In this document: positions 21,503 to 33,448 of the stretch, one piece after another
Position numbering within the stretch: position 1 is the stretch's first letter
Layout of the letters: each line of letters opens with the position of its first letter
From: a plasmid
Assembly: GCF_054482595.1 (NCBI RefSeq)
Contig: NZ_JBTHVH010000004.1
Strand: one strand, 5' to 3'
DNA: 64,000 bases
Made by a program: the position numbers and the translations under genes
Notes under the pieces: model-generated
Told to the model about the DNA's origin: nothing
What the model saw: the letters and a program-made list of their open reading frames with translations, nothing else
Databases searched by the model: none

Positions 21503-21832
21503 GAATACAAGGACAATGCCGGTACCGCCTGATTACTTCTGGCGTCGTCTACAATGTTACTCCAGGCATATGCTGCGTCGTCCGGGGTTTGTTTTGGATC
21601 TATGTCCAATGTCGGCCAGACGTGGCCCTGATGATTCTTGCCCTTTGTACAGGAAGTGATTAAGTGTACTGAGCGTTCAGAGAACATTATCTTCCTTACA
21701 TACCCATAGAACAGCTTTCTAAGAACGGTGGGCTCGGCTGAAAATTACAAATCAGCCCCTTTCACGGCATCATTTTGATTCTTCGCGTCTGCCCCAGTAA
21801 GATGACCGGTTTTCTGCATGACAGTGTTATTC

Positions 21833-22126
21833 CTAACAAACGCAACACAAAACCACGCCAGCCAGAGCAAATTTTTTCATTTGCTGCGTAAAGAGCCTAT
21901 TGTTTTCTCTTTTAAGCTTCGCCCACTCGTTACAGAGGGTAACATCATCAAGCGCTGTTATATGCTTCGCCTCACCTTCGACGATAACGGTATGGATACC
22001 GTATGCTGTAAATCTCATACTATTTTCCAGAACCCAGTTGCGGTATTCGTCGAGTCCACCTTCGGAACCGGTAGCTCTGCGCCACATTTCAATTTGCTTG
22101 TGTGATGGGTCAAGTGTACTTGTCAT
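21833..22126 (-). CDS. Hypothetical protein (97 aa)
   Basis: ORF track only; no recognisable motif. Confidence 0.35.
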   Translation of the reverse strand: MTSTLDPSHKQIEMWRRATGSEGGLDEYRNWVLENSMRFTAYGIHTVIVEGEAKHITALDDVTLCNEWAKLKRENNRLFTQQMKKFALAGVVLCCVC

Positions 22127-22393
22127 TGAAGCCTCGTCTCAGCGATAACGCTTGAAATAGCCCGCTTTGGTCATCATGAAATTAGCCATCTGACTGGCGA
22201 TTTGATTGTATCTTACTCATAGTGCCCTACCTATAGGTTAAAAAGGGGCATTTTCGCTTTATAGCGTGTTCAGCAGCATCAATCCTCCCAAGAAAGGCTG
22301 GCTTATTAAGCCGGTCCATCATTTTCTGTATATCTCTCATCAATTTTTATATCCGCCCTGGAGTGCACCGTTCAAGCACACCGATTAGGCAGA

Positions 22394-22455
22394 TAGTCAC
22401 TAGTTAACTCTTTACTAGTGACTAAATTCCATTGATATACGTGACAACGTCACGT
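22394..22455. promoter_or_regulatory. Pair of short perfect inverted repeats sharing a GTGAC/GTCAC core, candidate operator
   Basis: TAGTCACTAGT-8bp-ACTAGTGACTA (22395..22424) and ACGTGAC-3bp-GTCACGT (22439..22455) in an AT-rich leader. Confidence 0.5.
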
Positions 22456-22661
22456 CATGAAAGCTTTTAAATGCCTATTTTTCATACAATGGGATTTAAT
22501 TAGGAGTAAATCCCATAGGCTTACATAAGGATGACAATTAAAAGCGTTAAATATCAACCAGATAGAATGATTACCCCCAATTAATGGGCTCATCACATTA
22601 TTTCACTGGCTGGGGTTATTGCTGGCATATCTGAAAGTGCTAATATGTTAGTCATTAGTAA

Positions 22662-22680
22662 TTAGTAAAGCCTTTACTAA
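22662..22680. promoter_or_regulatory. 19-bp palindrome upstream of the 276-aa gene
   Basis: TTAGTAAAG-C-CTTTACTAA, 77 bp upstream of the ATG at 22757. Confidence 0.5.
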
Positions 22681-22756
22681 ACGCGTTTCTACGTAAATTC
22701 TATAGGTTTTATAGTGTCCTACCTTTGCTCAAATCAAAATGTTCTGACATACCAAA

Positions 22757-23587
22757 ATGGAGTGTAAAATGACTCAAAACCAGGGTTCTGAGCCAGTACC
22801 GGCGAGCCGGACAGGGCAGCTCATCAGCGCCCGGGATATGGCCATGCAGAAATTCGAAGAAGGGATGCGGTTAATCTCGGAAGCGTCGGAACTGTGCGGT
22901 CTCTCTCTCTTCACCAGCAGAATTATGCAGCCCAACGCATTTGGTCTTCCGTCGTCACTGGATCGCACCATCGAGGAGGGGCGTAAGGAAATTGACCGTA
23001 AAACGTGGAAAAGGCTCTTTGAAGAAACAGGTATGGACCGGTACTGGAACCATAAGCAAAAAGAAGCCTTTAACGAATCCCTTCGTACGGATCCGCCCGT
23101 CGCTTCCCTGGAGATTGTTAAGGGAACATTACAGCATGCACTGGCTAACAGACGAGACACCCTTGCAGAAGGTTTCGTTGATGTTCTCAACAAGCTTGAC
23201 CGAAGTTTCAAAAGCAATGCCAGGCAATATACAATGCCAAAAAAGCTTGTTCTTCGGGGGATTTTTCCTGGTGTGAACGTGCTGAGGTACAACGGTTTCT
23301 CGCAGGACAATCACTTTTGTTTACGCGACTTTGAGAATATTGTATGCATCTGTTCTGATACTCCAACACCTGCAACCGGCGGTGGGCTGAGTATGGTCGA
23401 CAGGCTGACGGCCATGAGAAATACAGAATTCACAGGCGAGGTCAGTGATGAGAATGGCTGGCGGTGTCGCCTGTTTGAGAATGGAAACGTTCATATTTGC
23501 ATCGACAGTATCTCGCTTCTGAATGCTCTGAACGATCTTATCAGCATATATTTTGCAAACCAGCTTCCGGCCGCAGGAAAAAAATGA
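22757..23587 (+). CDS. Hypothetical protein (276 aa)
   Basis: ORF track; stop overlaps the next start (ATGA); no family recognised. Confidence 0.5.
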   Translation: MECKMTQNQGSEPVPASRTGQLISARDMAMQKFEEGMRLISEASELCGLSLFTSRIMQPNAFGLPSSLDRTIEEGRKEIDRKTWKRLFEETGMDRYWNHKQKEAFNESLRTDPPVASLEIVKGTLQHALANRRDTLAEGFVDVLNKLDRSFKSNARQYTMPKKLVLRGIFPGVNVLRYNGFSQDNHFCLRDFENIVCICSDTPTPATGGGLSMVDRLTAMRNTEFTGEVSDENGWRCRLFENGNVHICIDSISLLNALNDLISIYFANQLPAAGKK

Positions 23588-31378: not shown

Positions 31379-31840
31379 ATGACAAATTCTCAATCTGATT
31401 TTCCTTTGAACGATCAAAATTTTCAGGCAGATTTGCTGAAAATCAAAAAGGTTTTCGCCGACCTTATAACGCAGGCATCAGATGGTAAGATACCCATAAG
31501 GTCTTCTCATGTACACGGCTTACACCATTTCGAGGAGCTCTACATCCGGGCAAGAGCAGGCATGTGTTCGGTCCTGGGATATCCGGTCATGGTTGTTTCA
31601 ACTATCTCAGTTAAAGAGCCCGGCACAGGCATTTTTAGAGCGCTTCTTGCAGAATTGAAATGTATTGCAGATGAACAAAATTACATTTTGAAAATTGAAA
31701 ATGTACTGCCTCCCCTATTCCGCAAATACCTTATTCAAGAAGGTTTTGTTTTCCCAGGTGAACCTTGGATGTGTGGTTCCGGCTATTGGTTTAAGAACCC
31801 ACAAGTACTTCATGAAAATATTGAGTTATTATCTGTTTAA
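31379..31840 (+). CDS. Hypothetical protein (153 aa), possibly GNAT-like
   Basis: ...KEPGTGIFRALLAEL... weakly resembles the GNAT acetyl-CoA binding motif. Confidence 0.35.
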   Translation: MTNSQSDFPLNDQNFQADLLKIKKVFADLITQASDGKIPIRSSHVHGLHHFEELYIRARAGMCSVLGYPVMVVSTISVKEPGTGIFRALLAELKCIADEQNYILKIENVLPPLFRKYLIQEGFVFPGEPWMCGSGYWFKNPQVLHENIELLSV

Positions 31841-31869
31841 GTCGATCTAACAATTTCACTGGAGCTAAC

Positions 31870-32277
31870 ATGTCCCCGGAATTGGTATCAGACATTGCAA
31901 GAGTGGCGCATGAAAAGCTACTTTCAATTTTAACGGAGTGCGGCATAGAGAAGACGGCAGGCACTTGCCTTTTTGCAAGCTATCTTGTGTGTTATTTAGC
32001 AAAAACTAAAGGTCTAGATGCTGTTGTCCGTGGGGGTAACGGTGCAGATGATGGCGGTATATTTATAGAGTGTGGTGGCTTTGGCCATTATTGGTGTGAG
32101 TTGAATTTCGAAGAAGTGCAATATTATATTGACATCACTTCCGAACAGTTTGGGTTTCATCCATACATAGTGAAACTCGCCAACGATATAACAGGATGGC
32201 CTCGATATATTCCTGGTGATCAGGAAACGGTCGATAGTCATTTAGAACAATTATTACGCGACGGCTATACAGAATAG
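31870..32277 (+). CDS. Hypothetical protein (135 aa)
   Basis: ORF track; 29 bp after previous gene. Confidence 0.4.
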   Translation: MSPELVSDIARVAHEKLLSILTECGIEKTAGTCLFASYLVCYLAKTKGLDAVVRGGNGADDGGIFIECGGFGHYWCELNFEEVQYYIDITSEQFGFHPYIVKLANDITGWPRYIPGDQETVDSHLEQLLRDGYTE

Positions 32278-32327
32278 GCTGCGTATACCCTATCGCAGCC
32301 TTTCAGGCTCTTAACCCTTGTGACCTG

Positions 32328-32855
32328 TTAACGGAACCACTCAGGATGACGCTGCCGATCAACTTTGATAACCTGCGAATTAAATTCAACGACATCCGCT
32401 GGAGTAAGCATTAATTCATCAGGATTTACAATAAATGGTCTTAAAACCACTTCGCCACCGTCTTCTTTTGCACCGTAGATATTAATAAGAAAGTGCAGTC
32501 GTTGATTTCCTTCAGCATTGCGTTGCCATTCTCTAAAAGTCAAAGTTTGTTTAATATAGTTTGTTAAAAGAAATGCGAATTCAGATTCTTCCGTTTGTGA
32601 GATACCGATTTTGTTAGACATTTTTTTTAGTATCTTTCCGAGCATGGACACACAGGCATCTAGACTTAACGATGTTGAAATTTTGGTCGTATTAAAATCC
32701 TCCTGCGAAAGTGAAATCATCCATGTATTATCTTTATGATAGTCGGTAATATAAATAAAATGAGATGTAAAAGGCGTTGAGTGATTGAACTCTCCTAAGT
32801 TCCATCCATACTGACTCACTGTATTTGAGCTAAGTTCTTTGTCGGTAATGTTCAT
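32328..32855 (-). CDS. Hypothetical protein (175 aa)
   Basis: ORF track only. Confidence 0.4.
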   Translation of the reverse strand: MNITDKELSSNTVSQYGWNLGEFNHSTPFTSHFIYITDYHKDNTWMISLSQEDFNTTKISTSLSLDACVSMLGKILKKMSNKIGISQTEESEFAFLLTNYIKQTLTFREWQRNAEGNQRLHFLINIYGAKEDGGEVVLRPFIVNPDELMLTPADVVEFNSQVIKVDRQRHPEWFR

Positions 32856-33021
32856 AATTCATACCTTTCGATAAAGTCTGTAATGATAATTAGCTATCTC
32901 AAAGGACCAGAACAACTCTTGAAATAACCACACTCGAAGAATTTATCATATTGAACACCCCTACCTAATAACCTTGCCGACTTAATAAATCACAATAGCC
33001 CTCCCCTGACATTTTAAAATG

Positions 33022-33408
33022 CTACTTGAATTTTTGATAGCTTATGGTTGTTTTATGTTCTTTGTGATACGCATATGTCATCTTCTCTTTCCAGTACCAA
33101 TCTTGTAGATCCTGCAAGTCTAGCCCATTTTTCTCACGTATGCTTTCGTGTAATTCGCTAAGCGCGAGTTTATCATTAGGTTTATAAATGGCTAATTTTT
33201 CTTCAAATAAATCCAGCCAACGTTTCCCCATCTTACGACGCAAAACAAACACCATCGTGATAAATGTAATGAAATGCACAGCAATTAGTTCCAACTTATG
33301 CGATTGCTGACCAGATAAAATTACTATTGTAACAACAGGGATGGCCGTATATAAAGCAATCAAAGCGACCATAAGTTGGTATGGTTTTTCCCGTATTACC
33401 ATGTTCAT
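33022..33408 (-). CDS. Hypothetical membrane protein (128 aa)
   Basis: Two hydrophobic segments then a charged C-terminal region. Confidence 0.4.
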   Translation of the reverse strand: MNMVIREKPYQLMVALIALYTAIPVVTIVILSGQQSHKLELIAVHFITFITMVFVLRRKMGKRWLDLFEEKLAIYKPNDKLALSELHESIREKNGLDLQDLQDWYWKEKMTYAYHKEHKTTISYQKFK

Positions 33409-33448
33409 GGGTAAACCAGAGGACGCTACTGCTTGCCAAAATCTTAAA

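Follow-up and report, generated by a model that had tools for sequence, protein, structure and literature searches.

An 11,946-bp segment of IncHI2-type plasmid backbone between two outward-leading transposon ends

The window analysed here is a stretch of 64,000 nucleotides of plasmid DNA (NCBI RefSeq assembly GCF_054482595.1, contig NZ_JBTHVH010000004.1). Positions 21503-33448 form an 11,946-bp segment bounded on both sides by terminal inverted repeats (IRs) of Tn3-family transposons. This segment is almost certainly a stranded piece of the conserved backbone of IncHI2 (R478-type, ST3-like) conjugative plasmids, as judged by its identity to typed plasmids, by its continuity with the backbone in uninterrupted relatives, and by its match to plasmid R478. 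The segment is already known at the sequence level and belongs to a common, well-documented plasmid family. Fixing the replicon type of the window as IncHI2 R478/ST3-like is mainly bookkeeping. As a backbone island that parts two resistance regions, the segment also aids in reconstructing how such large regions are assembled.

Identity and borders of the segment

The initial annotation, made from the sequence alone, had placed everything between the two IRs outside both transposons and proposed that it was either surviving plasmid backbone or an independent island. A megablast search of 21503-33448 against 72,556 plasmid records bears out the first of these options. It returned 1255 matching records, of which 631 cover at least 80% of the segment, and more than 25 plasmids are 100% identical to it across its full length. 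Most of the matching records (1068 of the 1255) are classed as conjugative. The plasmids are 180-400 kb in size, and their hosts are mainly Escherichia, Salmonella, Enterobacter and Klebsiella. All records that were inspected are typed IncHI2A, with a MOBH relaxase or an MPF-F transfer system, and the backbone type that the comparison with plasmid records returns is IncHI2 (R478-type). R478 itself matches the segment at 97-99% identity in three stretches of its own sequence (147143-154337, 154868-156001 and 165579-167182).

Continuity with the backbone can be seen directly in plasmids that carry the same DNA without the flanking transposons. In pKAM645_2, the order of genes is hipBA, HNH genes, hns, four small genes, the segment, two small genes, a gene for a 1111-amino-acid protein, umuDC and dsbA. 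The segment runs into backbone on both sides in this plasmid, and no IR is found at either breakpoint. When aligned with the uninterrupted backbone, the window departs from it exactly at 21502|21503 and 33448|33449. At the left junction the backbone reads ...GATTACCT|GAATACAAGG where the window reads ...ACTGACCCC|GAATACAAGG, and at the right junction the backbone reads ...AATCTTAAA|TACCTTCCG where the window reads ...AATCTTAAA|GGGGAGCCC, so that homology to the uninterrupted backbone ends precisely at both IR tips. In another plasmid, pLWY24, the segment continues into backbone on its left side and ends on the right at the same Tn1721 junction. Base composition also sets the segment apart from its surroundings, with a G+C content of 35-48% against about 51% in the left transposon and about 65% in the right one. 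The description of the region as free of insertion sequences (ISs) and resistance genes stands as well, since scans of open reading frames (ORFs) and protein families found no IS, transposase, integrase or resistance gene between the IRs.

The left IR (window 21465-21502, minus strand; GGGGTCAGTTTGGATATCGAAAATTATTGTACGTTAAG) has its outer GGGG tip at 21502, and the right IR, which belongs to ΔTn1721 (33449-33486, plus strand; GGGGAGCCCGCAGAATTCGGAAAAAATCGTACGCTAAG), has its outer GGGG tip at 33449. Both are 38 bp long and are present as a single copy in the window, with 0 chance matches expected for either. They differ in sequence and come from different elements. The 1009-amino-acid ORF at 18450-21479 on the plus strand is the tnpA of the truncated left Tn3-family transposon (NCBIfam transpos_Tn3, 1128 bits); because it terminates within the left IR, the left element must run leftwards. 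On the other side, the truncated tnpA of ΔTn1721 (33482-35302, minus strand) terminates within the right IR and is followed rightwards by pecM/eamA, tet(A) and tetR, which shows that the right element runs rightwards. Both tnpA genes border the segment and lie outside it, and because both outer GGGG tips abut the segment, the two elements point away from it. The positions and outward direction originally given for the two IRs thus hold to the base, each 38-mer being unique and each transposase ORF ending within its IR.

Tn3-family elements can carry large passenger regions, and a segment flanked by Tn3-family IRs could be taken for the interior or passenger cargo of one larger known transposon. 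This is hardly conceivable here. The GGGG tips face the segment and the transposase genes read to the IRs from outside, while the two IRs, being different in sequence and each present once in the window, belong to different elements. Searches inside the segment turned up neither a transposase or resolvase gene nor anything of the res type. The idea is already refuted by the uninterrupted backbone sequences of pKAM645_2 and R478, in which the same DNA runs on into backbone and neither breakpoint has an IR. No continuous match of the segment to the interior of a single known transposon emerged from the search.

In plasmids of the pNDM33-1 type, the flanking elements have been named ΔTnEc1 and ΔTn1721 (PMC8920835), and the same paper mentions "IS26 upstream of ΔTnEc1". 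The label ΔTnEc1 is that paper's name for the element in relatives of the window's plasmid; the plasmid records say only "Tn3 family transposase". The left element of the window is cut by IS26 at 17808/17809, and in pLWY24 the transposase gene of ΔTn1721 is interrupted by an IS26 that lies about 1.5 kb inward from the IR. As a separate observation, the tet(A) beside the ΔTn1721 end (36683-37584) is truncated at about 37584 and is followed by a blaTEM fragment and IS26, and a second copy of tetR-tet(A) is found further to the right (51175-53130). The truncated gene and the second copy together indicate that a Tn1721-derived module has been duplicated and rearranged in the window.

The second option of the initial annotation was an independent island, here taken as a genomic island or integrative element acquired by the plasmid in one piece. 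Most genes in the segment lack an assigned function, the DNA of its right third is rich in A+T (35-38% G+C) and varies between IncHI2 lineages, and the DUF4942 and DUF1173 families, both represented in the segment, also occur in other mobile elements and in chromosomes, all of which would fit an island. Such an origin is nevertheless very improbable. Scans of ORFs and protein families revealed neither an integrase nor a recombinase gene, and the repeat search of the segment found no direct repeats on its flanks, only short two-copy matches, none of them at the borders. The ends are set by the insertions of two unrelated transposons, and relatives whose DUF1173 protein is only 53-61% identical keep both the gene order and the hns and ter neighbours.

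Backbone DNA can also travel, and it is worth asking whether IS26 or ISCR1 brought the segment in from another IncHI2 plasmid, as a hitch-hiking passenger together with resistance genes. In pVb0267, an IncC plasmid of Vibrio parahaemolyticus, 3.08 kb of this backbone (30369-33448) plus the Tn1721 IR lie downstream of ISCR1 in a complex class 1 integron (window 30369-33486 corresponds to L019 6001-9080). This copy shows that the backbone DNA has moved as a passenger with resistance modules. It speaks for import, as does the fact that in pNDM33-1 the segment is inverted and severed from the remaining backbone. Import is still a very improbable explanation for the window. All inspected full-length carriers are typed IncHI2A, and pLWY24 represents an intermediate in which backbone is joined on the left while the right Tn1721 junction is the same. 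The window itself ends in further IncHI2 backbone, which indicates an IncHI2-like host replicon. This second fragment, 318 bases long (63683-64000), closes the window after the last IS26 (62863-63682). It belongs to a gene for a hypothetical protein of 203 amino acids and matches 1083 plasmid records. In pSTM6-275, the 203-amino-acid gene lies near a methyltransferase gene and a gene for a protein with Ig-like domains. In pNDM33-1, the resistance region is bordered by another backbone locus than that at 63683-64000. The original statement that 21503-33448 holds every uncharacterised gene of the window was nearly right, and needs to be amended only for this fragment.

Several points weigh against reading the segment as native IncHI2 backbone isolated by two insertions. 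Genes for replication or transfer are absent from the 64-kb window, so that the assignment to IncHI2 depends on identical plasmids that have been typed and on the second backbone fragment. A target duplication is seen at neither insertion. The 5-bp sequences GAATA (21503-21507) and TTAAA (33444-33448) are the candidates, but the window includes neither the partner transposon ends nor the adjoining backbone, and both elements are truncated by IS26 (the left one in the window, the right one in pLWY24). The order of events and the role of IS26 come from comparison with other plasmids. Finally, outside 13849-37584, the window's plasmid is arranged unlike pNDM33-1, and its right resistance region ends at a different backbone locus.

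Insertions and rearrangements around the segment

The two junctions are not equally common among plasmid records. The left one, a TnEc1-type IR in a backbone gene for a 221-amino-acid protein, is found in 51 records, and the right one, the Tn1721 IR in a backbone gene for a 163-amino-acid protein, in at least 616. Given these numbers, we infer that the Tn1721-type right insertion is ancestral to a large lineage and older than the left one, and that the TnEc1-type left insertion probably came later and marks a sub-lineage. Only 275 records have the backbone just to the right of the Tn1721 site, and the majority of these are Enterobacter plasmids that match at about 95% identity. It would seem from this that the lineage with Tn1721 has lost its right flank, although the two sets of records may overlap. 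With its left backbone intact and the right Tn1721 junction present, pLWY24 is an intermediate state.

The closest fully sequenced relative is pNDM33-1, in which a single resistance region of about 95 kb encloses the segment as an island. Expressed in positions of the pKAM645_2 locus, the backbone of pNDM33-1 breaks off at 3237 and begins again at 28635, and the segment (8998-24210 on the same scale) is inverted and has a resistance region on either side. Of the adjoining backbone, about 5.8 kb is missing from one flank and about 4.4 kb from the other. It is likely that two independent Tn3-family insertions set the ends of the segment, one of the Tn1721 type on the right and one of the TnEc1 type on the left. 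IS26 would later have truncated both transposons, which would then have become seeds of resistance regions. Deletion and inversion mediated by IS26 would account for the loss of the flanks and for the reversed segment.

The segment also holds two known acquisition sites, both of them empty here. The first is GTCCT at 22716-22720 (plus strand), the target site of the Tn7-like transposon that carries sil/pco (silver and copper resistance). The Tn7-like element is known to be flanked by 5-bp direct repeats of GGTCC or GTCCT (PMC4855149). Homology to R478 begins at 22716, and pcoE is directly upstream of this point in R478; together with the GTCCT motif, this identifies 22716-22720 as the empty sil/pco site. 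Many IncHI2 plasmids lose homology to the segment at the same point (query positions 1214-1216). The second site is in the gene for a 298-amino-acid protein described below. In pSH16G2457 (L020), a colistin-resistance unit, mcr-1-pap2, lies within this gene at the equivalent of 29568-29576, and in the window the corresponding site at about 29568-29576 is empty.

Gene content and proposed role

The central part of the segment consists of three conserved operons, with a variable AT-rich tail beyond them. The operons encode a DUF4942 protein with a coiled-coil protein, a Dcm-type methyltransferase with a 55-amino-acid ORF and a DUF1173 protein, and a thermonuclease, predicted to be secreted, with the 298-amino-acid protein. 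Contigs whose DUF1173 protein is 53-61% identical show the same arrangement, with a staphylococcal nuclease and a protein of about 313 amino acids, then Dcm, an ORF of about 58 amino acids and DUF1173, then DUF4942 and a coiled-coil protein of about 400 amino acids. In these divergent contigs, the block adjoins hns and ter-type genes. The fact that gene order is kept at this level of divergence, near hns and ter, points to long vertical residence in IncH-type backbones, and on this comparative evidence the block is an old resident of them. More distant contexts are less complete. As an example, in a Klebsiella plasmid with a DUF1173 protein at 42% identity, the nuclease and DUF1173 genes are side by side with hns and there is no Dcm; Dcm is likewise missing from the DUF1173 contexts in Pseudomonas and Massilia.

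The Dcm-type DNA cytosine-5 methyltransferase (26639-28066, minus strand) scores 841.6 bits against NCBIfam PRK10458, above the curated cut-off of 710, and matches PDB entry 3me5 with E = 1e-193. Its best PADLOC model is "orphan methyltransferase". Family scans recognised no partner from a known restriction endonuclease family in the segment, and the enzyme appears to be an orphan methyltransferase. Between dcm and the DUF1173 gene lies the 55-amino-acid ORF (26411-26578, minus strand), which matches PHROG 25588 (E = 2e-24) and is annotated in plasmid records; divergent relatives have an ORF of 58-59 amino acids at the same place.

The DUF1173 protein (25069-26388, minus strand, 439 amino acids) has an N-terminal zinc motif of the form C-x-C...H...C and a C-terminal PD-(D/E)xK-like domain, a fold class to which many restriction enzymes belong. 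An AlphaFold2 model built from 36 homologues reaches a predicted local distance difference test score (pLDDT) of 89 and a predicted template modelling score (pTM) of 0.89. A computational prediction from 2010 had described an N-terminal zinc motif and a degenerate nuclease-like C-terminus for this family (PMC3045609), and the predicted model agrees with it. In the sampled clade, C53, C55, H86 and C90 are invariant, and E335, K351, D365, D370 and E380 are nearly so. Since these last five residues are so well kept, the protein may, as far as its sequence goes, be catalytically active. PADLOC gives a weak match of the DUF1173 protein to PDC-S68 (E = 8e-5), and its defence models return nothing else in the segment beyond the methyltransferase and coiled-coil noise. 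A restriction-modification system, or an obligate pairing of Dcm and DUF1173, was considered and rejected. The Klebsiella, Pseudomonas and Massilia contexts have DUF1173 and no Dcm, so the partnership is not an obligate one, and this speaks against a concealed restriction-modification pair.

To the left is the pair formed by the DUF4942 protein (22769-23587, plus strand, 272 amino acids; Pfam E = 3e-26) and the coiled-coil protein (23584-24789, plus strand, 401 amino acids), whose start overlaps the stop codon of the DUF4942 gene. This pairing is kept in divergent relatives. The coiled-coil protein gives low-scoring matches only, to coiled-coil regions of SMC, JetC and LmuB. For DUF4942, the predicted model is confident (pLDDT 88), a search for structural neighbours of it gave no informative one, and longer members of the family have a weak methyltransferase-like C-terminal region. 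The third operon, on the right, begins with a staphylococcal-nuclease-like thermonuclease of 171 amino acids (28281-28796, plus strand) with a hydrophobic, signal-like N-terminal sequence. It is annotated as "thermonuclease family protein", matches NCBIfam EcnA and NucI below their cut-offs, and is an endonuclease according to PHROG. The hypothetical protein of 298 amino acids (28799-29695, plus strand) is encoded just downstream of the nuclease and has no family or PDB match. Sequence searches of PDB with the DUF4942, DUF1173 and 298-amino-acid proteins gave nothing significant.

The segment has no mobility functions of its own, and its most likely role is in plasmid establishment and DNA housekeeping. 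Going by its family membership, the Dcm enzyme would methylate CCWGG sites and thereby shield the plasmid from EcoRII-type restriction in new hosts. A bolder proposal is that the three operons form an undescribed IncH module for establishment or for countering host defences, with DUF1173 as a DNA-processing nuclease, and this we consider unlikely. The conserved DUF4942, DUF1173, nuclease-partner and small-ORF genes ride on more than 1000 sequenced resistance plasmids and have been unstudied so far.

The remaining genes lie towards the borders. At the left edge, 21503-21687 (minus strand) is the start of the 221-amino-acid backbone gene (WP_000490638), of which about the first 62 codons are left; it is cut by the left IR, in which the reading frame runs on as far as 21466. 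In its intact form the protein resembles DpdC (PADLOC DpdC, E = 4e-59; Pfam DUF6884, E = 2e-6). The intact gene is found at locus L004 8520-9185, where it stands alone on the IncHI2 backbone with no dpdA or dpdB nearby. Next to it is a small hypothetical backbone gene (21745-22125, minus strand), which encodes 126 amino acids in pLWY24. Compared with that plasmid, the window lacks 1 bp at 21791 and has 2 bp more at 21892-21893, differences that alter the frame, and pNDM33-1, identical throughout the segment, shares this frame-altered allele. A gene-free stretch of 630 bp upstream of the DUF4942 gene contains a perfect 9-bp inverted repeat at 22398-22424 (GTCACTAGT, an 8-nt spacer, ACTAGTGAC) with GTGAC/GTCAC motifs nearby, and this repeat may be a candidate operator site.

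On the right, the tail begins with a run of small, hydrophobic, AT-rich ORFs of 135, 84, 113 and 76 amino acids (29743-31042, plus strand; G+C about 35%), which have no family match. Two hypothetical genes of 153 and 135 amino acids (31379-32277, plus strand) and one of 175 amino acids (32328-32855, minus strand) follow, and the last feature is the 3' part of the 163-amino-acid backbone gene (33022-33448, minus strand; WP_047744987 in pKAM645_2), whose 5' end was removed by the Tn1721 insertion. The right third, beyond about 29.9 kb, varies between IncHI2 lineages, and R478 and pKAM645_2 carry extra genes there. An Rfam scan of 21300-33700 gave only a sub-threshold hammerhead (22 bits against a gathering score of 52), which was taken as chance, and scans of the segment for promoters and terminators found no excess over shuffled expectation.

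Comparison with known plasmids and methylation systems

In passages of two papers (PMC7355605, PMC4855149), R478 is cited as the prototype IncHI2 plasmid (Gilmour et al. 2004, Plasmid 52:182) and as the sequence that defines the IncH backbone. R478 (NC_005211) has the same genes as the segment in the same order, from DUF4942, the coiled-coil protein, DUF1173, the 55-amino-acid ORF and Dcm to the thermonuclease, the 298-amino-acid protein, the small ORFs and the terminal hypothetical genes. In the variable AT-rich part, R478 departs from the segment by additional ORFs and an island for arsenic resistance, which lie between the equivalents of 31044 and 31827, and neither of the two Tn3-family insertions is present in it. 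The ST3-type IncHI2 plasmid pNDM33-1 (NZ_CP076648 / MN915011) is closer still. It shares the identical 11,946 bp and the same ΔTnEc1 and ΔTn1721 junctions, but orders its resistance regions otherwise than the window does outside 13849-37584.

Among methylation systems, the natural comparison is with Dcm of E. coli, with EcoRII-type methyltransferases, and with the chromosomal dcm-vsr pair. Unlike these, the segment has neither a vsr gene nor an EcoRII-type endonuclease. Given the zinc motif and the Vsr/RAP-like PD-(D/E)xK domain of DUF1173, it is possible, as a speculation, that this protein acts as a substitute for Vsr and repairs T:G mismatches that arise from methylation by the plasmid Dcm. 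DUF1173 is, however, a multidomain protein of 439 amino acids that also occurs without a Dcm neighbour, and a Vsr-like role for it is speculation only.

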